NCBI GenBank assembly: GCA_041168925.1
Contig: JBEEJY010000010.1
Coordinates: 12,430-76,429, forward strand
Length of the DNA stretch: 64,000 nt
From: Candidatus Parcubacteria bacterium
GTDB taxonomy: Bacteria > Patescibacteriota > Minisyncoccia > Phycocordibacterales > UBA2100
Reading direction: 5' to 3'
A program made the position numbers and the translations under genes. The number at the start of each line of letters is the position of its first letter. Within the stretch, counting starts at the first letter, position 1. Shown here in pieces: positions 52,094 to 63,965 of the stretch. Below the pieces are notes generated by a model. That model did no database searches and was not told where the DNA came from. It saw only the letters and a program-made list of their open reading frames with translations.

Positions 52094-53422
52094 TTACCAG
52101 ATCTCACTCGGAGCAACGTTGTTTGATTTGGTCGCGGAAAGAGGCATGCCGTCCTTGGTCGGTTTTTTCGGCCACTTGTCTATCACTTTCGTCTTCAAGC
52201 CGATGCGATTCAGCACTTTGATAAAAGGGTCGGGGTCGAGCTCTTCGGCATTGACCATGGTGTGTGGCGCCCAAATCCCCTTCGCGACGAGGATGGCGGC
52301 TGCGATGGGCGGTACGCCGGCGGTGTAGGAGATGGCCTGCGACTCGACTTCCCTGTAGCACTTGGCGTGGTCGCAGTTGTTGTAGATGAATACCTCGCGC
52401 CACTTCCCATTCTTCCACCCCTTCACGAGGTCGGCGATGCACGTCCAGCCCGTGTACGTCTTTGCGAGCGATGCCGGGTCGGGCAAAACGGCTTTCAGCA
52501 CTTTGAGCGGCACCACCTTGACCCCCTCGGCGGTCGTGACCGGCTTTTCGGAGAGCATGCCGAGATTGCGCAGCACACCAAAGACATTGAGATAGTGATC
52601 GCCGAAGCCCATCCAGAAGCGGATACTCTTGGCATCAATATTTTTCGAAAGTGAATGCAGTTCATCGTGGCCGTTGAGGTAGACCGGGCGCGAGCCGACG
52701 ACCGGGAAGGTGTAGTCCCACCGCTCGCTATGTACCGGGCGTACGACCCATTTGCGATTGATCCACGTCCACACTTTCTTGAACTCGCGGAAATTTATCT
52801 CCGGGTCGAAGTTGGTGGCGAAATATTTGCCATGGCTGCCGGCATTGACGTCGAGAATGTCTATCGTGTCTATCTTGTCGAAATAATTTTTCTTCGCAAG
52901 CGCCGCCCATACATTGACGACGCCCGGGTCGAAACCGATACCGAGGATGGCGTTGATGCCCGCTTTTTTACAAGCAGCCCGTTTCTTCCATTCATAATTC
53001 GCGTACCATGGCGGATCTTCTGCGACTTTGGTCGGATCTTCGTGGATGGCGGTGTCCATGTAGGTTACCGGGCGGCCGTTCACCTCTTTTGCACGGATAC
53101 ACGCCTCCAAGACCGACATATTGATGTAAGCCGTGCCGAGATTGATCACGATGGACGAATTCGTGTCCTTGATGAGTTTCGTCATCGCGGAAATGTTCAT
53201 CGCATCTATCTCTCGCGAGTAGAGCTTCGCATTCTTATCTTTCTTGCTCCCCTTGCGTTTGATGCTGGCGATGATGGCGTCGGCTTTGGCGCGCTTGCGC
53301 GAGGCGATGCAGATATCTCCGAGGACGTCGTTGTTTTGCGCCGCTTTGTGTGCGGCCACATGAGCGACGGCACCCGCGCCCACAATCAGTACGTTTGGTT
53401 TTGTGTTTTTCATGACCTGCAA
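52094..53422 (-). CDS. carboxynorspermidine synthase/dehydrogenase (saccharopine dehydrogenase family)
   Basis: Rossmann fold VLIVGAGAVAHVAAHKAA and a saccharopine dehydrogenase-like C-terminus; adjacent to the carboxynorspermidine decarboxylase gene. Confidence 0.75.
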   Translation of the reverse strand: MQVMKNTKPNVLIVGAGAVAHVAAHKAAQNNDVLGDICIASRKRAKADAIIASIKRKGSKKDKNAKLYSREIDAMNISAMTKLIKDTNSSIVINLGTAYINMSVLEACIRAKEVNGRPVTYMDTAIHEDPTKVAEDPPWYANYEWKKRAACKKAGINAILGIGFDPGVVNVWAALAKKNYFDKIDTIDILDVNAGSHGKYFATNFDPEINFREFKKVWTWINRKWVVRPVHSERWDYTFPVVGSRPVYLNGHDELHSLSKNIDAKSIRFWMGFGDHYLNVFGVLRNLGMLSEKPVTTAEGVKVVPLKVLKAVLPDPASLAKTYTGWTCIADLVKGWKNGKWREVFIYNNCDHAKCYREVESQAISYTAGVPPIAAAILVAKGIWAPHTMVNAEELDPDPFIKVLNRIGLKTKVIDKWPKKPTKDGMPLSATKSNNVAPSEIW

Positions 53423-53434
53423 ACTGTCGACCTT

Positions 53435-54592
53435 CTAACCGGTAACCGCTCCCAGGCTTCCCTCGAAATCATCGTAGGTAAATTCTCGTACGACGTCAAC
53501 AGCGCCGTCGAGCCGCTTCACGACTATCGAGGGCATCTGCACGCCGTTGAACCAGTTCATCTTCACCATGGTGTAGCGCGCCGCTTGATCGAACACGACA
53601 TAATCGCCGACTTTCAACGGCTCCGGGAGGTCATAGGTGCCCCATATGTCTCCCGCAAGACAGGTATTACCAGCGACCATGAAGCGATTCGGACCCGTCG
53701 CTTTCTCGGCGAGCGTCGCATCTTCGTGATAGACGAGATTATCGAGCATATGCGTCTCCACGGCCGCGTTTATGATGGCAATTTTGAGCTCGTTCTCGAC
53801 GATGTCTTGCACCTGCGTCACCAGAAATCCGGTGCCGAGCACCGACGCCTCGCCAGGCTCTAAGTAAACTTGTACGTCATAGTCGGTCGCGAATTTCTTC
53901 AGCCGGTCGCAGAATTTATCGAGCGGATAGCCTTCGTCGGTAAACGCGATACCGCCGCCGAGCGATACCCACTCCATTTTTTTAAGAAGCGGCCCGTATC
54001 TCTCCCCAATCGTATCGACGATTTTTGAAAACGCATTAAAATCCGTGTTCTCGCAATTTACGTGGAACATAAGCCCCTGTATCTTGTCTGCGACCTTCTC
54101 GATGGCCGCGATGTCCTTCACCCCAAGACGGCTCGCCTTGCGCGCCGGATCAGCGAGATCGAAGTGCGAGTGGCTCACGCCCGGATTGGCCCGCAACCCA
54201 AGATTCTTTCCTTTCACATCCGGATAAAACCGCTCCAGCTGCGAAACGGAATTGAAGATTATCTTGTCGGCAAAGGTTTTAAGCTCGTCTATGTCTTTTT
54301 GCGACCACGCGACGCTGTAGCCTTGCGTCTCGCCACCGAATTTCTCATGCCCCAGGCGCGCCTCGTAGAGCGCGCTCGAAGTAGTCCCGGCCATGTACTT
54401 GCTCATGAGTGGGAAAACAGACCACGTCGAGAAGCATTTGAGCGCTAAAACCGCTTTCGCGCCGCTTTTGTCCCGAACATATTTCATCTTTTCCATGTTC
54501 TTCAGGAGCCGCGCCTCATCGAGCAGATAGTATGGCGTCTGCAATTCCTTGTGCGCTTTCACAAAATCCCAAATCGATTCTTCTTTTGACAT
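53435..54592 (-). CDS. nspC: carboxynorspermidine/carboxyspermidine decarboxylase (PLP-dependent, fold type III)
   Basis: ODC/DapDC-like TIM barrel with a PLP lysine region (AVLALKCF) and a C-terminal beta domain; paired with the dehydrogenase upstream. Confidence 0.8.
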   Translation of the reverse strand: MSKEESIWDFVKAHKELQTPYYLLDEARLLKNMEKMKYVRDKSGAKAVLALKCFSTWSVFPLMSKYMAGTTSSALYEARLGHEKFGGETQGYSVAWSQKDIDELKTFADKIIFNSVSQLERFYPDVKGKNLGLRANPGVSHSHFDLADPARKASRLGVKDIAAIEKVADKIQGLMFHVNCENTDFNAFSKIVDTIGERYGPLLKKMEWVSLGGGIAFTDEGYPLDKFCDRLKKFATDYDVQVYLEPGEASVLGTGFLVTQVQDIVENELKIAIINAAVETHMLDNLVYHEDATLAEKATGPNRFMVAGNTCLAGDIWGTYDLPEPLKVGDYVVFDQAARYTMVKMNWFNGVQMPSIVVKRLDGAVDVVREFTYDDFEGSLGAVTG

Positions 54593-54676
54593 CGTTCGCA
54601 CTATATCACATAGTGTCTCGCAGTCCTGTTCCGGTTGGCCGGCAGGCGGACTAACACAAATTCTGACAGGTGTATC

Positions 54677-55240: not shown

Positions 55241-56230
55241 TTATTTTTGGTGAGACTTGATCGCTCTCATGATTAGAAACTTCGATTCGTAGTGATACGG
55301 AGGATTCGCTTTCGAATATGATTCTCGCGGAATTCTGCTCCGCCAAAATCGCGTTGCATACCCCCGGAAAAGGCGGTTCAGCATTCTCTCTGCGGATTGG
55401 TTTGTATATGCTTTTTCGCCGGGAATGACGTAGGGTTTGCCATCGAATCGGTCCCGCTTGATGTCCGTGGCGAAATCGATGAGTGCTGTTCCATTAGGCT
55501 TGAGCACTCTGTCTATCTCGGAGGCAATGTGTTTGAGTGTGCGCAGAGGAAAGATGTGGAGAGTCCCCACGCAGAAGACGCCGTCCATAGAATTTGCCAC
55601 TATTGGAAATCGTCGAGCGACATCGAAGACTTTCGTTGTGAACTTTCTCTTGTACTTTCGCGATATATTGCGCAGCGACTTCTCAAGGGCGTTCGGATCG
55701 ATATCCGAAGCAATGAGTGAATTAACCGTCCTCAGAAGCAACGCATTGCACCTCCCGTCTCCAGCCGTTAGATGGAGCCACGCACCCTTCACTCGCAGCG
55801 TGTTAATAACCTCCACGGTCTTCGGATCCTCTAAACCCCAGATGGATCGTCTTCCTGTTTTGAGATAATCGATGTGCTCGATATGGTGGTGCAGTCTTTT
55901 CTTATGACGAGAATCTTCGGGTGTTGTATGTGATACTTCATCACTAATCTTGTTTAATCCACTGGCCGCGAAAGCGCCTTCTGATTTCAGCATCGCTTGT
56001 TTTCTGAGCGTGCCGCCTCTGTTGTAGCTCCCAAGCGAACCATCGGAGCGGATGACACGATGGCAAGGGATGCTCTCATCGTAATTGGTGAGCATGATGG
56101 CACCGACGGCGCGCGCGGCCTTCGGATTGCCCGCTCTTGCGGCGACTTCTTTGTAGGTCATTGACTTCCCTTTCGGGATTTTTCTCACCACATTTCGCAC
56201 TTTGTCTGCAAACGTCTTCATGCTCGTCAT
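55241..56230 (-). CDS. fusion protein: N-terminal MGMT-type DNA-binding domain (PCHRV active-site motif) + C-terminal class I SAM-dependent methyltransferase
   Basis: N-terminal 90 aa match the O6-alkylguanine-DNA alkyltransferase C-domain (TYKEVAARAGNPKAARAVG...IPCHRVI). The C-terminal region has the Rossmann motif I LHLTAGDGRCN and the post-II motif LKPNGTALIDF. Confidence 0.6.
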   Translation of the reverse strand: MTSMKTFADKVRNVVRKIPKGKSMTYKEVAARAGNPKAARAVGAIMLTNYDESIPCHRVIRSDGSLGSYNRGGTLRKQAMLKSEGAFAASGLNKISDEVSHTTPEDSRHKKRLHHHIEHIDYLKTGRRSIWGLEDPKTVEVINTLRVKGAWLHLTAGDGRCNALLLRTVNSLIASDIDPNALEKSLRNISRKYKRKFTTKVFDVARRFPIVANSMDGVFCVGTLHIFPLRTLKHIASEIDRVLKPNGTALIDFATDIKRDRFDGKPYVIPGEKAYTNQSAERMLNRLFRGYATRFWRSRIPRESYSKANPPYHYESKFLIMRAIKSHQK

Positions 56231-56266: not shown

Positions 56267-56302
56267 TATACTATATCTTTGCTATAGCATAGTTTTAGTA
56301 TA
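56267..56302. repeat. 36-bp AT-rich palindromic element TATACT-N8-GCTATAGC-N8-AGTATA overlapping the start codon of the PaaX-like gene (divergent promoter region)
   Basis: Part of an about 45-bp direct repeat with the element at 56888..56923. Confidence 0.6.
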
Positions 56303-56871
56303 TGGGAGAAATTGAACGGAGGGGAAAATTAAGGAGGCGAAGGAGGAACATTAAGAATGCCCTGCTGACGGCGATTCAACTTGCGGCAGTTGTCGGTGTC
56401 GCCGTCGCTGCGCCGAATCTGCCGCAAGCCCTTTATAAGACAGGTCTACTGAAGATACGCGGGGATGGCGCGGTTATAAGTCGCTCACGAAGAAACTTGT
56501 TGAGGCGACGTCTACTAAAAGAAGAAAAGGGATTTCTCGTATTGACACGCGCTGGGCAAAGAGAACTGCTTCGGATTGAGCTCGGTGAACGGCGATTGAA
56601 ATCTTTTCGATGGGATGGACGATGGCGTGTACTTATCTTTGATATCCCAGAATACAGAAAGAAAGACCGAGAGAAATTGCGTCGCACGCTCCGGAGCGTC
56701 GGATTCGAGCATTTACAGGACAGCGTCTGGATCTATCCTTATGACTGCGAAGATTTTGTGGCTCTTTTGAAGGCAGATTTCAAAATTGGGAAGGACATGC
56801 TGTATATGATTGTGGAGGAACTCGAGGGAGATTCGACGCTCCGGAAGCAATTCAACCTTCGAAACCGCTAG
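56302..56871 (+). CDS. PaaX-like transcriptional regulator (wHTH + PaaX_C/Cas2-like C-terminal domain)
   Basis: C-terminal WDGRWRVLIFDIPEYRKKDREKLRRTLRSVGFEHLQDSVWIYP matches the PaaX C-domain pattern; the N-terminal half is helix-rich. Flanked on both sides by the palindromic element. Confidence 0.5.
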   Translation: MGEIERRGKLRRRRRNIKNALLTAIQLAAVVGVAVAAPNLPQALYKTGLLKIRGDGAVISRSRRNLLRRRLLKEEKGFLVLTRAGQRELLRIELGERRLKSFRWDGRWRVLIFDIPEYRKKDREKLRRTLRSVGFEHLQDSVWIYPYDCEDFVALLKADFKIGKDMLYMIVEELEGDSTLRKQFNLRNR

Positions 56872-57789: not shown

Positions 57790-58296
57790 CTAACTCATCG
57801 CACCTGGTGCGGTGTCGTGATTTTCATGGTGTTCGGTAAACCAGTGTTTGAAACGATTCTCCAGGTACCACATGCCGGTAAACATGATCAGGGAGAGAAT
57901 GGTGGAAAATACCGCGACCGCGTACATCCCGAAGCCGGCGGCCATGCCGATGGCGCTCACGATCCATAAGCCCGCCGCGGTCGTGATGCCGTGCGGCACG
58001 TCGCCGCGAAAGATGATGACTCCCGCGCCGATGAAACCGATACCGGTCGCCACCCCTGCTGCAAGCTGAAGCGGCTGGATGTTGACGATCCCAAGGTATG
58101 CCGAATCGACATAGTTGGAAATGAGAATGAAAAGACATGCGGCGAGCGCGACGAGGCCGAAGGTGCGCGTGCCGGCCGCTTGTTTGGCGAGAATGGCGCG
58201 CTCGGTACCGATGCATGCGCCAAGGGCCATGGCAAGCAAGAGCTTGCCGAACATGACGACTGTCGGGTCGATAAATTCAGCCGGCGTAGGTTGCAT
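57790..58296 (-). CDS. mgtC: MgtC/SapB-family membrane protein
   Basis: Four to five TM helices with the MgtC signature (ALGACIGTERAILAKQAAGTRTFGLVAL). Confidence 0.75.
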   Translation of the reverse strand: MQPTPAEFIDPTVVMFGKLLLAMALGACIGTERAILAKQAAGTRTFGLVALAACLFILISNYVDSAYLGIVNIQPLQLAAGVATGIGFIGAGVIIFRGDVPHGITTAAGLWIVSAIGMAAGFGMYAVAVFSTILSLIMFTGMWYLENRFKHWFTEHHENHDTAPGAMS

Positions 58297-58313: not shown

Positions 58314-59180
58314 TCAAATACCGCACAACTGTTTGGCTTCATCGAGAACATGGGGAATTTTATCGGGGCGTATGCCGAATTCCTTGAGCATATGCGGGGT
58401 CGTGACGCTTTTGCACAGCACGATGCGCCGGTCGAGGAAACGATGCTTCTCGCCATCGGAAAGCGTCGTGAGACAGGTAAGCGGATGCACCTTCCCCGCT
58501 TCGATCATATGGAAGAGGCCGCGATCGTGCGGATAATCCCAGCCGAGCAACGTAAGCCCCGAACACTGCGCGTAGCGGATCGCATTCCGAGTAAAGCGAG
58601 TGTTGGTCGCCAGCCATCCTTCATCGATACGCATCGATGCTTGTGGCGCCGCGTGGAGATCTTCGTAGCGCGCGCACACGTAGAGCGCATCTTTGATGTC
58701 GGTTTTGCCGGACGCATCATTGTGAAATTTTGCTTCGATGCCGACGCGTTTGCCGCCGCGCTCCGCGACCACGTCCACCTCGTGCGGCGCGCATCTGCCC
58801 GTGAGTGCAACGCCGGTGCGCACGTGCCAGCCCTGGGCGCGCAGCACTTCGGCGAGAAATTGCTCAAAAGGAAATCCCGAGGGGCCCAATGCGAAAACGG
58901 CGCGCTTGATCGAGTAGCGCGCGGCGACGGGCGTGACGTCCTCGCGCCTCAGTATCTCGAAGGCGCGCCGGTATATATCTTCGGTGTACATTCCCGGACG
59001 AAGTTCGCGCATCATGTGCGCGAGAATCTTCGCGCGTGCCGTCGAGGAGGCACCCGCTAGCTCGAGCGAATGCATGAGCTTGCCGGGATCAAACGGCTCT
59101 TGCTCGCCGTCGGCTTTGGTAATGACAAACTCGCGGCTCTGTCGCGTCGATGGCTGCGGACGTGAGGCTATCGTTGTCAT
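58314..59180 (-). CDS. ATP-cone domain fused to an Mrr-like restriction endonuclease (PD-(D/E)xK) domain
   Basis: The N-terminal region (FVITKADGEQEPFDPGKLMHSLELAG...KILAHMMREL...DIYRRAFEILRR) matches the ATP-cone as in NrdR. The C-terminal HEVDVVAERGGKRVGIEAKF carries the D..E.K catalytic motif of Mrr_cat. Confidence 0.6.
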   Translation of the reverse strand: MTTIASRPQPSTRQSREFVITKADGEQEPFDPGKLMHSLELAGASSTARAKILAHMMRELRPGMYTEDIYRRAFEILRREDVTPVAARYSIKRAVFALGPSGFPFEQFLAEVLRAQGWHVRTGVALTGRCAPHEVDVVAERGGKRVGIEAKFHNDASGKTDIKDALYVCARYEDLHAAPQASMRIDEGWLATNTRFTRNAIRYAQCSGLTLLGWDYPHDRGLFHMIEAGKVHPLTCLTTLSDGEKHRFLDRRIVLCKSVTTPHMLKEFGIRPDKIPHVLDEAKQLCGI

Positions 59181-59608
59181 GGTCTGGAAGAACCGCTTTT
59201 GCTCGCATAGGGTAAGACCACGATCGGCAGTCCTGCGCCGTTAAGCGACGCGACGAATTCAATGCCGGCGGCCGGTCCGAAAACGACCGCGTGGAACGAG
59301 CGCGGCGTTTCTTCCTTCGGGCAGTCCTTGATAGCGGGTTCGCGCCACGTCCGGAACGAAAGCATGAAGGTCGAAGTTGAAAGTGCCTCCGTATGCACGA
59401 TGAGTTCGTCGCACGGCGTGGGGACGGACACCATCCCGAAGAGATTGTGAACACCCGGCTGCAATTCGTCGCGGATCATGACCGATCCGAGCGCTCCTGA
59501 TTCCCGGGTATGGACGATGTTGCCGAGAAAAAGATAGCTGCCGTACGCGATCGCAGCGGCGAGAAACGCAAACCAAAGAAAAGGCCACACGATGTATCCC
59601 ATGCGCAT
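59177..59608 (-). CDS. small membrane-anchored hypothetical protein (143 aa)
   Basis: N-terminal TM helix; stop overlaps the start of the ATP-cone/endonuclease gene by 4 nt. Confidence 0.4.
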   Translation of the reverse strand: MRMGYIVWPFLWFAFLAAAIAYGSYLFLGNIVHTRESGALGSVMIRDELQPGVHNLFGMVSVPTPCDELIVHTEALSTSTFMLSFRTWREPAIKDCPKEETPRSFHAVVFGPAAGIEFVASLNGAGLPIVVLPYASKSGSSRP

Positions 59609-59632: not shown

Positions 59633-60691
59633 TTATGGCAGGTTCTCCCGCGAAATAATACCGCCGCCAAGACATTCATCGCCGCGGTAGAGTACGAGCG
59701 ATTGGCCGGGAGAGACGACATGCGGGCGACGAAATGTAAACACGGGGGGCGAGGCGTCCATAGAGAGAATGCCCTCGACAGGCTCTTCATGGTAGCGTGA
59801 CTGCGCGAAAAGCGATTCTTGGGAAAGCGCGGTCTCACCGACCCAGCGAAGTTGGGAAAGCGCGACACGCGAGCACGCCGCAACATCGCGCGTCCGCGCC
59901 ACCTGCAATACATTTTTCTCGACATTGATTCCGACCACGTAGTGCGGCTCGTTTCCGCCGCCCCCTGCGGTAAAACCGTGCCGCTGCCCGATCGTGTAGA
60001 GCGCCGCTCCTTCATGACGGCCGACGACGGAGCCGCTCTCGTCTACAACATCGCCTTGCGCGAGGGGAATGTAGCGCGAAAGGAAATCGCGCATCGAGAC
60101 ATCGCCGACGAAGCAAAGCCCCTGACTGTCCGGCCGATCCGCGTTTGGAAGCGCATAGCGGCGCGCAAGTTCGCGTACGCGCGATTTCAGCAGCGAACCG
60201 ACGGGGAACATCGCGTGCGCCAGCTCGTCCTGACCGAGTCGGTACAGAAAATAGGATTGGTCTTTCGCAGCGTCCGCCGCGCGCCGCAGGGCAAATGCGT
60301 CATTCCTTTCCTCGACGCGGGCATAATGCCCGGTCGCGACGATGTCGGCGCTTTCCGCGAGCGCCCAGCGCAGCAGCGCGCCGAATTTTATCTTTTCATT
60401 GCAGCGCACATCGGGGTTTGGCGTTATGCCTCGCGAATAGTCGGCAAGCATCGCATCGACGACTTCCCGCTGATACGCGGATGAGAGGTCTACCTCGCGA
60501 AATGGGATATCGAGCGCCGCGCACACGCGCAGCGCGTCGAGCCTGTCTTCTTTCCAGGTGCACTCCAAAAATTCAGGTCGCCAGATTTTTACAAACACGC
60601 CGGTGACGTCGTGCCCCTGCGCTTTGAGAAGCGCCGCCGAAACGGCGCTATCCACGCCGCCGGAAACCGCCGCGTATACGCGTTTCGCCAT
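59633..60691 (-). CDS. mnmA: tRNA-specific 2-thiouridylase MnmA
   Basis: PP-loop AVSGGVDSAV and a catalytic Cys region (ADRPDSQGLCFVG). Confidence 0.9.
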   Translation of the reverse strand: MAKRVYAAVSGGVDSAVSAALLKAQGHDVTGVFVKIWRPEFLECTWKEDRLDALRVCAALDIPFREVDLSSAYQREVVDAMLADYSRGITPNPDVRCNEKIKFGALLRWALAESADIVATGHYARVEERNDAFALRRAADAAKDQSYFLYRLGQDELAHAMFPVGSLLKSRVRELARRYALPNADRPDSQGLCFVGDVSMRDFLSRYIPLAQGDVVDESGSVVGRHEGAALYTIGQRHGFTAGGGGNEPHYVVGINVEKNVLQVARTRDVAACSRVALSQLRWVGETALSQESLFAQSRYHEEPVEGILSMDASPPVFTFRRPHVVSPGQSLVLYRGDECLGGGIISRENLP

Positions 60692-60703
60692 GTACGGACT
60701 ATA

Positions 60704-61771
60704 TCAAAAGTACCGCCGTTTATTCGAGAGCTGACAGGCGTAATTCTGGCAGTAGTGGGTCACGCCGGAGTGATCGGCAAGGAAATAGAGATAGTCGCTC
60801 TCGATCGGGTCGGCGGCGGCGAGGATTGAATCAAGCGACGGCGATCCGATCGGAGTCGGCGGTAAGCCTTTGTACCTGTAGGTGTTGTAGGGCGAGTCGC
60901 TCGTGAGATCCGCCATCGTGAGCTGGAAAGTCCCCTTGCCGAGCGTGTAGGCGAAAACGGCGTCGACCTGCAGGGGCATCTTGCGATCGATCCGATTCCA
61001 TAAGACTCCCGAGATGAGGCGGCGATCTTTCGTGTTGAACGCCTCGCGCTCGAGAATCGAGGCCATGATGATGAGCTCGGAGAGCGGACGAGACGAGCTC
61101 GCTATGTCGCCCTGTATCGTCGCGATATGCTGATCGAAATTCTGGCGCATCGTCTCAAGCACGATGTCCTCGGTCGCGTTGGGCAGGAAAAAGTACGTAT
61201 CGGGAAAAAGATACCCTTCTTCACCGCGCGCTTTCGCGAGAAACCGATCGCCGTCGAATCGCTCGAGCTGCGTCCCGTAGATCTTTGCCATTTCTCGAGT
61301 CGTTGCACCCTCGGGGACGCGTACTCTGACCGGCTCGAGTCCGTAGAGTCCCGTCGCGAGCGAATGCGCTACCGCGAAAATATCGAGCGGCTCCTTGAAG
61401 ATATAATCGCCGGCGTGTACCGCACGCTCGCGCCCCATCATCGTCACGAGCACGCGCAGCACGAAGGACGAGCGCACGACGCCCGCGTCGGCAAGCTCTC
61501 TTGTGACCTGTCCGAGAGATTCGCCCGTAGGCACCGATACGAGCGAATCGACCGGAAAGTTATCCGGCGGCCGCACGACATAGAGATAGACGAACGTGGC
61601 GAAAAATCCGGCCAGAATCAGGATCGCTATACTGCGCCGGTTGGAGTGCGGGCGCCATTTCTCCGACAAGTCGTCCAAAAGCGCGTGGCCGCGGTCGAAC
61701 ACCTGTTGTAAGAATTGCTCAAATGATTGCATAGCGAGATTATGAGCCGCCGGTACTTCGTTTCGATGCAC
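60704..61771 (-). CDS. mltG: endolytic murein transglycosylase MltG (YceG-like)
   Basis: N-terminal TM helix and a YceG domain (...DSPYNTYRYKGLPPTPIGSP...). Confidence 0.85.
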   Translation of the reverse strand: MHRNEVPAAHNLAMQSFEQFLQQVFDRGHALLDDLSEKWRPHSNRRSIAILILAGFFATFVYLYVVRPPDNFPVDSLVSVPTGESLGQVTRELADAGVVRSSFVLRVLVTMMGRERAVHAGDYIFKEPLDIFAVAHSLATGLYGLEPVRVRVPEGATTREMAKIYGTQLERFDGDRFLAKARGEEGYLFPDTYFFLPNATEDIVLETMRQNFDQHIATIQGDIASSSRPLSELIIMASILEREAFNTKDRRLISGVLWNRIDRKMPLQVDAVFAYTLGKGTFQLTMADLTSDSPYNTYRYKGLPPTPIGSPSLDSILAAADPIESDYLYFLADHSGVTHYCQNYACQLSNKRRYF

Positions 61772-61802: not shown

Positions 61803-63215
61803 TTATTTCGGCAAATTGGGCGGCGGCTCGGCTTTCTTGGCCGGAATGCGCTGCAAGCCGGGCGCGACGATGGCGCTCGAAGGCGGATGCCACATGGTCG
61901 CGAGGATTTCGGTCGACATCATGTTGTGCGGCATGATCCAGGGCGAGTAAAAATGCGATCTCCTGCGGTAACAATCGAAAAATCGCCGCTGCATGAGCCG
62001 CCAGCGGATATCGCGAAAATCCTGCCACGGCCAATCGAACGGATTGCCCCAACGACGCGGACGCATTTGGTTGGCATACTGCGCGTTGCCGACAGGCCGC
62101 CAGATCCAGCGAACACCGGTGTAGCCCGCGCTGTTGAATTTGTCTGCATCGCTGATATAAACACCGCGCGCGCCGACGTTGAAAGGATGCTTGCTCATGT
62201 TGCGATCCATCGCCTCGATGAGTTGCGCATAGCGATACTGCGGCACGCGGGCCGATCGTCGCCACGGTTCTTTGTCGACATCTCCGACCGCCTCTTTTCG
62301 CAGCGCATTGATTTCGCGCTTGATGACGCCCTGATAGCGCGACTGCGTTTCCCACCACGGCTCGCCCGGAACGTGTTCGACGTCGCGACACATGGTGATC
62401 ACGAACTGAATCCACATCTGCTCGTCGGGCCGCAGAATACTCATGCGCTCGAGCACTTCCGCGAGCGGGTCGATCTTGTACTCCTCTTTCGGATCCTTGT
62501 CGAGCTCGAATTCCACATAGGTGCGAATGGGATACGCGTCATTGCGGGGTTCGAAACGCCAGTCGGTCGGAAAGCATTCTTGTTTTTCGGGATCAAAGCG
62601 GTATTTCGAGGCATAATCTTCCGCCTCGACAATCTCCACTTCGGGATAGTAGGCATAAAGCGCGGCTTCGACGTTGGGACGCCATTGTTTCCAACACCAA
62701 ATATAAAAATGCACGTCGCCGCCGAATGAGGCGATCTCGAGCGAGAAGATCGGCCGCACCTGGCCCTGCCAGATACGATTGAGAAAAGTCGTTTCGCCCG
62801 AGTCCGTCCATAGCTTCGAGAGGGCGTTTTCCATGGCGCGGGGAGAGCGCACGAGATCGCGCGAAAATCTCACCTCGAGCAAGAGCGTCTCGCGCTTGAA
62901 CAAAAAGACGCCGTGGGAATACCACACCCACACTTTCCACGCCGCGACCAGGAGCGCGATCGGAAGCCATACCGGCGCGGTACCAAGGAGCCACTCGAAT
63001 GCGAAAAGCGGTAGGTTGGGGATCATGTTCCAGAGTATGCCCATGAGCCCCCAAAAAAGTACCGAGAGAAACAGGCACCGGGAAATACCCCAATAATTGC
63101 CGAACAGGCCGTCCACGATGTGGTGGAAATTGAGACTCAAAAACTCTCCGACGAGACCGCGCAGATCGCCGGATCCGATCACGCCTTCCTGCTCGTATTC
63201 TTTGATAAACGCCAT
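61803..63215 (-). CDS. Trp-rich membrane protein of unknown function (470 aa)
   Basis: Two to three N-terminal TM helices, then a large W/R-rich soluble domain. No known motif recognised. Confidence 0.45.
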   Translation of the reverse strand: MAFIKEYEQEGVIGSGDLRGLVGEFLSLNFHHIVDGLFGNYWGISRCLFLSVLFWGLMGILWNMIPNLPLFAFEWLLGTAPVWLPIALLVAAWKVWVWYSHGVFLFKRETLLLEVRFSRDLVRSPRAMENALSKLWTDSGETTFLNRIWQGQVRPIFSLEIASFGGDVHFYIWCWKQWRPNVEAALYAYYPEVEIVEAEDYASKYRFDPEKQECFPTDWRFEPRNDAYPIRTYVEFELDKDPKEEYKIDPLAEVLERMSILRPDEQMWIQFVITMCRDVEHVPGEPWWETQSRYQGVIKREINALRKEAVGDVDKEPWRRSARVPQYRYAQLIEAMDRNMSKHPFNVGARGVYISDADKFNSAGYTGVRWIWRPVGNAQYANQMRPRRWGNPFDWPWQDFRDIRWRLMQRRFFDCYRRRSHFYSPWIMPHNMMSTEILATMWHPPSSAIVAPGLQRIPAKKAEPPPNLPK

Positions 63216-63281: not shown

Positions 63282-63965
63282 CTATTTCGAAAGCGTGTAC
63301 TTCCCTTCCGGAGTCCGCGCAAACATCGAATGCTGCAAATTGACGGCGATGGTGGCGTCTTTGACATATCGCTCGCGCTTCACGCGATCCACGATCTCTT
63401 CGCGCGTGAGCGGACCTTCGCGCTTCAAAATACCGGCAATGACATCGCGCACGACTCCCGGCTCGTACCCCCATTCTTTCAGAGCATAGAGCCCGCGTCC
63501 GACGAGAACGAACCGGTTGTCTTTGATGAGTTCATTGTGGGTGGTCGCCGGATGCGTCTTGCGGCCGAAGAGTTTTTCGATCGATCGAGCGACTTCGGTG
63601 AAGTGCATCGGAGAGCCGTGGCGTTTGAGCGTGAGATAGGCGAAGTCGCGCGTGTTTTTGATCCGCACGTGAGGCGACTCCGAACGTCCCCACTCGCCGA
63701 GCGGGTTTTTACCGATGCGCTTGCTGATCGAGAGCCAGCGAGAGAGCACTTCGGTCGGACGGGGCTTCACCCCCTGCTGCCTCAGGTGCTTGTTGAAGAG
63801 TTCCACGAATTCTTCGTGCGGGATCAATTTGTTGGACTCGAGCGACTCGTAAAGATTCGAGAGTGACGCTTCCACCTGATCGGCGAGCGCTTCGTCGATA
63901 TGCCAGCGCGCTTTGAAATCCGCATCTTCCCGGCGGTCGTCAAACTGATGACCGACCGTGAGCAA
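63282..63965 (-). CDS. HARE-HTH (RpoE/delta-N-like winged helix) domain protein
   Basis: The C-terminal half has two wHTH units (MHFTEVARSIEKLF...DNRFVLVGRGLYALKEW; ...LTREEIVDRVKRER...) resembling HARE-HTH. Confidence 0.45.
   Translation of the reverse strand: MLTVGHQFDDRREDADFKARWHIDEALADQVEASLSNLYESLESNKLIPHEEFVELFNKHLRQQGVKPRPTEVLSRWLSISKRIGKNPLGEWGRSESPHVRIKNTRDFAYLTLKRHGSPMHFTEVARSIEKLFGRKTHPATTHNELIKDNRFVLVGRGLYALKEWGYEPGVVRDVIAGILKREGPLTREEIVDRVKRERYVKDATIAVNLQHSMFARTPEGKYTLSK

Follow-up and report, generated by a model that had tools for sequence, protein, structure and literature searches.

Closest described systems

Studies of ATP-cones as allosteric switches have been limited to ribonucleotide reductases (RNRs) and the repressor NrdR. 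In every studied case, ATP and dATP compete in the cone and alter quaternary structure (PMC4390871). Here, an ATP-cone of a different setting is described. It is encoded in a stretch of 64,000 nucleotides from a Candidatus Parcubacteria bacterium (GenBank assembly GCA_041168925.1, contig JBEEJY010000010.1, positions 12,430 to 76,429), which is called the window below. The gene at 58314-59180 is located on the minus strand, which corrects an earlier note. It encodes an intact protein with three domains: an N-terminal ATP-cone, a PD-(D/E)XK nuclease and, at the C-terminus, an AF1548-like domain (Table 1). In contrast to the cones of NrdA, NrdB, NrdD and NrdR, this cone is fused to a nuclease instead of an RNR or a zinc-ribbon DNA binder, and no linkage to nrd genes was seen in any neighbourhood of family genes. 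We infer, with a probability of about 0.5, that the protein is not a restriction enzyme but an Mg2+-dependent, non-sequence-specific housekeeping nuclease for nucleic-acid turnover and nucleotide supply, which would be set by the adenine-nucleotide pool via its ATP-cone.

For the nuclease part, several relatives have been described. AF1548 (PDB 1Y88; Mrr_cat and PF22357) shares both the nuclease core and the C-terminal domain, and the homology covers its full length. With 199 amino acids (aa), it is too short for an ATP-cone ahead of the region aligned with aa 107-287 of the window protein. AF1548 is a structural-genomics 'protein of unknown function' that is informative about the fold but not about the mechanism. 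As to function, only a nuclease prediction was located: in the 2007 Global Ocean Sampling analysis, AF1548 was predicted to be restriction-endonuclease-like, with D38, E51 and K53 as catalytic residues (PMC1821046). Mrr, MspJI and AspBHI have the fold in common with the window protein, which, however, carries no Mrr_N- or SRA-like reader of modified DNA, has no defence-island context and is part of a core synteny. In Can2, Card1, Cdn1, Cap4 and NucC, the ligand-gated PD-(D/E)XK nucleases of type III CRISPR and CBASS, a dedicated second messenger is sensed. Here, the sensor is an ATP-cone, and the presumed ligand is housekeeping ATP/dATP. The protein is not a CARF/SAVED effector, but it may work like one, with a sensor joined to an Mrr-like nuclease.

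A third comparison concerns the operon level. In Bradyrhizobium diazoefficiens, the trio bll3115-3117, which encodes a metallo-beta-lactamase (MBL) fold protein, a Prs-like and a thymidine phosphorylase (TP)-like protein, responds to microoxia with increased transcript and protein levels (PMC6515984). The ATP-cone nuclease heads exactly such a cassette in Bacteroidota, Chlamydiota and metagenomic relatives, whereas the genes of this operon are absent from the 64-kb window.

Domain architecture

The gene is a single open reading frame (ORF) for 288 aa, and the peptides quoted in the original prediction are found at aa 18-43, 51-60 and 133-152. ATG 59180 is the sole possible start; the first in-frame alternative (ATG, GTG or TTG) does not appear before Met36. 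This ATG shares the sequence ATGA with the stop codon of the upstream ORF. Residues 1-17 are unconserved and have lower confidence in the AlphaFold model.

The original prediction was a fusion of an ATP-cone with a restriction endonuclease fold. Both of these domains are present, while the third, C-terminal domain had been overlooked. The Pfam ATP-cone model PF03477 matches aa 19-93 (E=1.6e-6, 29.0 bits versus a cut-off of 25.8), and Mrr_cat matches aa 102-212 (E=1.3e-9, 38.6 bits versus a cut-off of 21). Both hidden Markov models thus score above their curated cut-offs, and the original prediction withstands the refutation that it had named for itself, a lack of such model matches. Residue conservation was computed on 44 diverse family representatives, which are 33-57% identical to the window protein and to which all counts out of 44 refer. 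PF03477 matches 41 of them, Mrr_cat 43 and PF22357 (AF1548-like_C) 28; the latter match is also precomputed for homologues. An AlphaFold model, one of the checks that had been proposed, was calculated from the 44-sequence alignment. It is confident (predicted local distance difference test 94.6, predicted template modelling score 0.87) and superposes on the ATP-cones of NrdR and RNRs as well as on the AF1548 crystal structure 1Y88. Both sequence and fold place the protein firmly in the AF1548-like, Mrr_cat and ATP-cone families.

Table 1. Positions of the gene, its domains and its neighbours in the window, and of cassette loci in other genomes (locus numbers with the prefix L)
Feature	Position	Strand	Basis or remark
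ATP-cone nuclease, complete coding sequence, 288 aa	58314..59180	-	ORF list, checked translation
ATP-cone, aa 19-93	58902..59126	-	predicted adenine-nucleotide pocket I20, K22, E28, P29, F30, K34, L35, T66, I69
Junction motif LGPSGFPFE, aa 98-106	58863..58889	-	sequence alignment and secondary structure of AlphaFold model
PD-(D/E)XK (Mrr_cat) core, aa 102-212	58545..58877	-	Pfam PF04471
Catalytic segment D136...E149-x-K151 (DVVAERGGKRVGIEAK)	58728..58775	-	D136, E149 and K151 invariant in 44/44 sequences
Helical C-terminal domain, about aa 213-288, AF1548-like_C	58317..58544	-	within 1Y88 match
mltG	60704-61771	-	minus-strand gene string
mnmA (tRNA 2-thiouridylase), upstream	59633..60691	-	Pfam; synteny clustering
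143-aa membrane-anchored ORF, ATGA overlap with gene start	59177..59608	-	ORF list
MgtC-family membrane protein, 17 nucleotides downstream	57790..58296	-	Pfam MgtC, E=7e-31
PDDEXK_1, Cas4-like nuclease, 270 aa	56957..57769	-	Pfam, E=3.4e-14
Cassette loci	L090:8022-12629; L091:1972-6597; L040:8001-15466
Further cassette loci	L036, L038, L044, L071, L094, L098, L100, L103, L106, L108, L115, L123, L151

The ATP-cone

The N-terminal domain has the cone fold, a beta-hairpin lid over a four-helix bundle, and carries the basic residues K92/R93 on its last helix. A PDB search with the N-terminal 92 aa as a single sequence yielded no match, and the family profile reached the NrdR and RNR cones in the PDB only marginally (E about 0.02-0.6). 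Since the profile matches were marginal, the assignment was settled by the fold comparison. NCBIfam has no model for the protein; the only similarity that it gave, below threshold, was to the cone of archaeal 2-phosphoglycerate kinase. Compared to NrdR, the cone is shorter, with two small deletions, and has a basic or polar residue in place of the outer-site tyrosine.

In the structure paper on Escherichia coli NrdR, V51, K53, S54, E59, P60, F61, K65, L66, S105 and I108 are the inner-site contacts. By profile alignment, they correspond to I20, K22, A23, E28, P29, F30, K34, L35, T66 and I69 here. K22 is found in 44/44 sequences and K34 in 43/44. Position 30 is occupied by 38 Phe and 6 Tyr, position 66 by 41 Thr and 3 Ser; position 69 is aliphatic and position 92 Lys or Arg in all sequences. 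The predicted adenine-nucleotide pocket is conserved, most of its residues family-wide. These conserved NrdR-type contacts strengthen the case for the ATP/dATP-dependent allosteric control of the nuclease that the original prediction had foreseen.

Alternatively, the cone might be degenerate or a purely structural oligomerization module. The protein would then be a constitutive nuclease or an NrdR-like, non-catalytic regulator that binds nucleic acid. Some RNR cones that match PF03477 are indeed non-functional (PMC4390871). Furthermore, the Pfam score is only about 3 bits over the cut-off, an Ala (A23) follows the invariant lysine of the lid, and the NrdR outer-site Tyr is missing. On the other hand, the retention of K22, F30, K34, T66, I69 and K92 at 86-100% in sequences with an overall identity of about 35-45% is hard to explain without a ligand, and the invariant catalytic residues argue against a non-catalytic role. 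Many cones carry KR at the lid lysine and the following residue. The Ala at the second position is not disqualifying, because E. coli NrdR has Ser and not Arg there and still binds ATP, ADP and AMP. Given the pocket conservation, a degenerate cone is quite unlikely.

Nuclease core, junction and C-terminal domain

The Mrr nuclease domain of the original prediction is confirmed by its fold: the core displays the alpha-beta-beta-beta-alpha-beta arrangement of PD-(D/E)XK enzymes. E106, E134, D136, E149 and K151, and with them the D...ExK triad, are invariant in 44/44 sequences, and so are R171, D174, N193, W214, P217 and P233. D136, E149 and K151 align with D38, E51 and K53 of AF1548. Judged from these residues, the nuclease active site is intact, and cleavage activity is predicted. 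The structural neighbours of the core comprise AspBHI, NucS, FokI, MspJI, Can2, Card1, Cdn1, NucC and Hjc.

In a PDB sequence search, aa 107-287 matched AF1548 (1Y88, 199 aa) with E=1.6e-28. This match extends well beyond Mrr_cat; therefore, the homology includes the C-terminal helical domain. This domain probably binds nucleic acid.

The junction LGPSGFPFE is the most conserved stretch of the protein, and G99, P100, G102, F105 and E106 are invariant in all 44 sequences. In the AlphaFold model, it is the direct connection between the final helix of the cone and the first helix of the nuclease, on which E106 is located. K92/R93, the phosphate-side basic residues of the cone, are located only 13-14 residues ahead of the catalytic E106. 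This suggests a short, rigid coupling path from the cone through the junction to the catalytic helix.

In addition, the nuclease core contains near-invariant Cys and His residues: C130 (43/44), H133 (42/44; the position is Gln in AF1548), H153 (41/44) and C206 (43/44). C256 and C286 are found in about 70% of the sequences. C130/H133/H153/C206 and perhaps also C256 and C286 could constitute a metal or redox site.

A probable housekeeping gene of Paceibacteria

The neighbourhood was analysed by clustering the neighbours in 80 related genome loci, about 70 of them of Patescibacteria type, from a scan seeded with a 12-sequence subset of the 44-sequence alignment. Locus counts are raw and ignore phylogenetic redundancy. 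In 64 of the about 70 Patescibacteria-type loci, mnmA is located directly upstream on the same strand. The gene mltG was found in 51 loci, and MgtC and PDDEXK_1 in 41 and 40 Paceibacteria loci, respectively. The synteny persists in Paceibacteria even at about 45% protein identity to the window's protein (range 45-78%). In close relatives, the ATP-cone nuclease is 66-78% identical to that of the window, MnmA 53-61%, MltG 49-60% and alanyl-tRNA synthetase (AlaRS) 69-81%. The gene is thus part of the core synteny mltG-mnmA-gene-mgtC-PDDEXK_1 in Paceibacteria, and its conservation is comparable to that of AlaRS. The window itself belongs to the core chromosome of a Kaiserbacteria-like representative of this group. 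In the window, a consensus scan revealed no convincing minus-strand terminator between the genes of the string from mltG to PDDEXK_1.

The fold raises the question of a defence function. According to this alternative, the protein would be an Mrr/type IV-like nuclease or an abortive-infection effector, whose cone senses a phage-caused disturbance of the nucleotide pool and unleashes non-specific cleavage, comparable to CARF/SAVED in Can2, Card1, Cap4 and NucC. Type IV restriction enzymes have Mrr_cat as their catalytic domain, MspJI, AspBHI, Can2, Cdn1, Card1 and NucC are among the nearest folds, and two family copies reside on megaplasmids, where they lie, however, in metabolic operons. PADLOC reported a weak similarity to the ZorD nuclease tail and the CARF_PDDEXK model (aa 104-164, E=0.006), but these are matches of the nuclease domain only and no system beyond the domain level.

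The other searches argue against defence. No match to Mrr_N or another DNA-reader domain was obtained at E<=1, the N-terminus being the ATP-cone, and none to a CARF or SAVED domain. Cyclase or cas genes were not found in the window neighbourhood. A tblastn search of phages gave no phage homologue, and comparison with viral structures gave partial-domain matches but no full-length one. The neighbours (143-aa ORF, MnmA, MltG, MgtC, PDDEXK_1) include no DNA methyltransferase partner. The only nearby methyltransferase, a fusion of Ogt with Methyltransf_11 (55241-56230), is 2 kb away and does not belong to the DNA N6/N4/C5 families. Genomic behaviour of the defence type, i.e. variable islands, patchy spread or association with mobile elements, was not seen: the window gene has no defence-island context, is fixed in the Paceibacteria core synteny at 45-78% identity and is as conserved as an aminoacyl-tRNA synthetase, unlike the fast-evolving, patchy defence genes. 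The protein is not an Mrr-type restriction system, since it lacks both a reader domain and defence-like genomic behaviour. Because of core synteny, AlaRS-like conservation and the absence of a methyltransferase partner, a phage homologue and a full-length viral structural match, the gene has the signature of a housekeeping gene and not of a restriction or abortive-infection gene. The term 'restriction endonuclease' in the original prediction holds for the fold; the genomic context speaks against a restriction function. Altogether, a defence role is unlikely.

A putatively stress-associated cassette in other phyla

Outside of the Candidate Phyla Radiation (CPR), the family gene has an entirely different environment, which is conserved to the same degree. 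In RefSeq, the megaplasmids of Criblamydia sequanensis and Pontibacter actiniarum carry the order ATP cone domain-containing protein / MBL fold metallo-hydrolase / thymidine phosphorylase family protein / ribose-phosphate pyrophosphokinase. The four coding sequences overlap by 1-4 bp in Criblamydia and are 4-11 nucleotides apart in Pontibacter. The identical gene order is found in Cyclobacterium, Owenweeksia and other Bacteroidota. In one unrelated metagenome-assembled genome, TP-like and Prs-like genes are located downstream, and an LGT gene intervenes after the ATP-cone gene. The cassette occurs in Bacteroidota, Chlamydiota and metagenomes and is often followed by a P-type cation ATPase. No description of this four-gene cassette as a unit was found.

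The MBL partner is a beta-CASP enzyme with an RMMBL 'RNA specificity' domain. It is akin to aCPSF1 and Cas14-type beta-CASP nucleases, with scores below their cut-offs. The phosphorylase partner is of archaeal type and comprises 499 aa with an N-terminal extension of roughly 98 aa. It scores 595 bits with TIGR02645 (cut-off 434.6) and 491 with the AMP phosphorylase model (cut-off 535). The kinase partner exceeds the cut-off of the PRK07199 ribose-phosphate diphosphokinase subfamily model.

Non-CPR members served as seeds for a metagenome scan, which added 80 loci; the pooled non-CPR loci amount to 97. Among the 75 with at least 1.5 kb downstream, 26 have a beta-CASP gene immediately downstream on the same strand and 43 anywhere in the locus. 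Where at least 4.5 kb downstream were available (55 loci), a beta-CASP gene was found in 34, a TP-like and a Prs-like gene in 19 each, a P-type cation ATPase (closest to Ca2+ types, below cut-off) in 24, and universal stress protein (Usp) genes, up to six in tandem, in 19. Other recurrent neighbours encode a PAS histidine kinase, a regulator composed of receiver, cyclic nucleotide (cNMP)-binding and Crp domains, phosphofructokinase, a GAPDH-like protein, D-2-hydroxyacid dehydrogenase and MgtC-DUF4010. In Criblamydia, phosphoketolase, glycogen phosphorylase and acetate kinase are among the neighbours. The surroundings of the gene outside of the CPR look like a low-oxygen or energy-stress island.

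A few observations on single loci can be added. Tandem Usp genes, the PAS histidine kinase and the receiver-cNMP-binding-Crp regulator are located directly upstream of the family gene (at about 7000) in L128, L142, L145, L149, L154, L160, L161 and L168. MgtC-DUF4010 belongs to the island in L113:1233-2501 and L117; in the latter, it lies directly between the family gene and the MBL gene. The MgtC protein of CPR and the MgtC-DUF4010 of the island have no mutual BLAST match and are linked only at the level of the Pfam family. Does the recurrence of MgtC in both contexts hint at ATP or Mg2+ homeostasis? In L082:6001-9064, the family gene is located immediately upstream of the gene for leucyl-tRNA synthetase, near tsaD, and in L087:4378-5837 immediately downstream of a gene for an NYN-domain RNase. 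Together with mnmA in Paceibacteria, this is a loose recurrence of RNA- or tRNA-related neighbours.

A tblastn search of the window for MBL, TP-like, Prs-like, P-type ATPase, Usp and MgtC-DUF4010 found none of them, and among the Paceibacteria loci, the cassette partners were represented by one Prs-like match only. A salvage-cassette context is therefore not claimed for the window genome.

Proposed function and its weighing

In the proposed mechanism, which is modelled on RNRs and NrdR, ATP would compete with dATP (or ADP/AMP) in the cone, with a change in oligomeric state or cone pose as the consequence. The change would be relayed through the LGPSGFPFE junction to the catalytic helix with E106. 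For cleavage, PD-(D/E)XK enzymes usually have to assemble into a defined dimer or tetramer. Because ATP-cones alter quaternary structure and nucleases of this fold usually depend on a defined oligomer, a nucleotide-dependent switch of oligomer or pose would be the most economical solution. The preferred sign of the regulation, a guess, follows RNR logic: ATP would permit cleavage, and dATP, the end product of salvage, would shut it off. The enzyme would then be a feedback-controlled supplier of (deoxy)nucleotides. The opposite sign, activation upon a fall of ATP, fits the stress-island context equally well.

In Paceibacteria, such a nuclease might adjust to demand how much acquired or surplus nucleic acid is broken down. 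De novo nucleotide synthesis is missing in CPR bacteria, for which nucleases have been put forward as a source of nucleotides (bioRxiv 10.64898/2026.07.13.738296). In Bacteroidota, Chlamydiota and other phyla, where its gene is the first of a translationally coupled cassette, the nuclease would make endonucleolytic cuts and the beta-CASP enzyme would then trim the pieces to mononucleotides. The archaeal-type thymidine/AMP-phosphorylase-like and phosphoribosyl pyrophosphate (PRPP)-synthase-like enzymes could subsequently recycle base and ribose in hypoxia or energy stress.

A far-reaching version of this proposal can be put forward only tentatively. It holds that the protein might be the first ATP-cone-controlled enzyme outside ribonucleotide reduction, a feedback nuclease that meters nucleic-acid breakdown against ATP/dATP. 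In Paceibacteria, it would be a core gatekeeper of nucleotide supply. Elsewhere, it would catalyse the first step of an undescribed pathway, induced by hypoxia or stress, from nucleic acid via nucleoside monophosphates (NMPs) to base and ribose-phosphate/PRPP, in which a beta-CASP nuclease, an archaeal-type NMP/thymidine phosphorylase and a PRPP-synthase-like kinase would take part as well.

Several points weigh against the nucleotide-supply function. The substrate could be DNA or RNA, single- or double-stranded, and the ligand and the sign of regulation are presumed. Y131, the outer-site Tyr of NrdR involved in discrimination between ATP and dATP, aligns with R93, a position held by Arg, Gln or Lys in the family; therefore, discrimination of ATP and dATP is not assured. 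The two genomic contexts, Paceibacteria and other phyla, share almost nothing, and since the cassette partners are absent from the window and the Paceibacteria loci, the salvage reading is carried over from other phyla. In Paceibacteria, synteny spans the whole region, so that adjacency to mnmA or mgtC may be functionally meaningless. Moreover, several of the neighbours there are DNA-repair genes (PDDEXK_1, Ogt-like, uracil-DNA glycosylase [UDG]), with which a repair role fits as well, and the core is structurally closest to DNA enzymes (AspBHI, NucS, FokI, Hjc).

The last two points lead to the strongest rival, a nuclease of DNA repair or recombination that is NucS/EndoMS-like, Hjc-like or flap/structure-specific. 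Its cone would couple incision to the availability of deoxynucleoside triphosphates, e.g. by allowing cuts only when dATP/ATP signals that repair synthesis is possible. Besides the similarity of the fold to NucS and Hjc and the repair genes of the Paceibacteria neighbourhood, EndoIII and LigD_N in L089 are consistent with such a role. The repair genes of Paceibacteria, however, fall in a generally conserved synteny block. No NucS-like clamp-binding or mismatch-recognition domain is present. The coupled partners outside of the CPR are metabolic or RNA-type (beta-CASP with RMMBL, nucleoside/NMP phosphorylase, PRPP synthase), in an island with Usp and fermentation genes. A repair function coupled to the nucleotide pool is regarded as doubtful.

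If the cone gates the nuclease in the proposed housekeeping enzyme, the known scope of ATP/dATP sensing would be wider. An ATP-cone governing a nuclease would join two known themes, ATP-cone allostery and ligand-gated PD-(D/E)XK nucleases. It would also provide a function for the thousands of proteins of this family, among them the structural-genomics orphan 1Y88, and a conserved regulated step in nucleotide acquisition or recycling by auxotrophic CPR/Patescibacteria. The widespread, undescribed stress-island cassette in Bacteroidota and Chlamydiota, an unexpected by-product of the analysis, would gain a handle. The family is a good and inexpensive experimental target: its presumed ligands are defined, point mutants can be easily chosen, and the protein is small and looks soluble.

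Family size and distribution

A search of 90%-identity clusters with the window protein found 2,167 relatives at E<=1e-3. The best 120 of them are 71-85% identical and labelled Patescibacteria, Kaiserbacteria or Paceibacterota. An exhaustive HMMER scan of 50%-identity representatives found 1,121 clusters at E<=1e-3 and 408 at E<=1e-30; among the 150 matches listed, most are full-length with about 270-300 aa. With the Criblamydia member as query, at least 6,551 clusters (90% identity) were obtained at E<=1e-20. The family is present in at least 595 species-level genomes, which represent many Paceibacteria lineages and Bacteroidota such as Pontibacter, Cyclobacterium, Owenweeksia, Phaeodactylibacter and Flavipsychrobacter. 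Further carriers are Chlamydiota, Chitinophaga and Psychroserpens, and archaea also belong to the family. Strong purifying selection acts on the family, of which the window gene is an ordinary member.

Database names range from 'restriction endonuclease', 'ATP cone domain-containing protein' and 'Holliday junction resolvase-like' to 'ATPase' and 'hypothetical'. A full-text literature search for the architecture, AF1548 and the RefSeq name found no study of the ATP-cone/nuclease architecture. It is catalogued in databases, and its function is uncharacterised, in line with the original prediction, which had called it poorly characterised. Aravind, Wolf and Koonin (2000), who defined the ATP-cone, may already have listed a nuclease fusion.

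Other genes of the window

The 143-aa ORF that is inserted between mnmA and the ATP-cone nuclease gene carries a transmembrane helix at its N-terminus and has no Pfam or NCBIfam match; its conservation is restricted to 11 close relatives. The PDDEXK_1/Cas4-like protein, encoded two genes downstream of the ATP-cone nuclease, contains a C-terminal cysteine cluster (CPRC...C..C motifs). Its match to the NCBIfam cas4 model is below the cut-off, and no CRISPR context is visible among the neighbouring genes scanned. The plus strand between this gene and the Ogt-methyltransferase fusion codes for a protein of 189 aa (56302-56871), which contains a PaaX central Cas2-like domain (E=2e-20).

The fusion gene itself (55241-56230, minus strand) combines an Ogt-type DNA_binding_1 domain (PCHRV active-site motif, aa 7-85) with a class-I S-adenosylmethionine-dependent methyltransferase (Methyltransf_11/25). 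Relatives have only a stand-alone Ogt-like protein of 106 aa at this position (e.g. L002:10288-10608). The remaining window is ordinary core chromosome with AlaRS, RpoA, DnaK, a polyamine pair and UDG. The polyamine pair (52094-54601, minus strand) consists of a saccharopine-dehydrogenase-like gene beside an Orn/DAP/Arg decarboxylase-like gene. Such a pair is typical of the carboxy(nor)spermidine route of polyamine synthesis and noteworthy in a reduced CPR genome. Upstream of mltG, two adjoining minus-strand genes belong to the same syntenic block. One encodes a 470-aa protein without Pfam match that is conserved in 51 loci (61803-63215), the other a HARE-HTH protein with 51-84% identity across the Paceibacteria loci printed (63282-63965).

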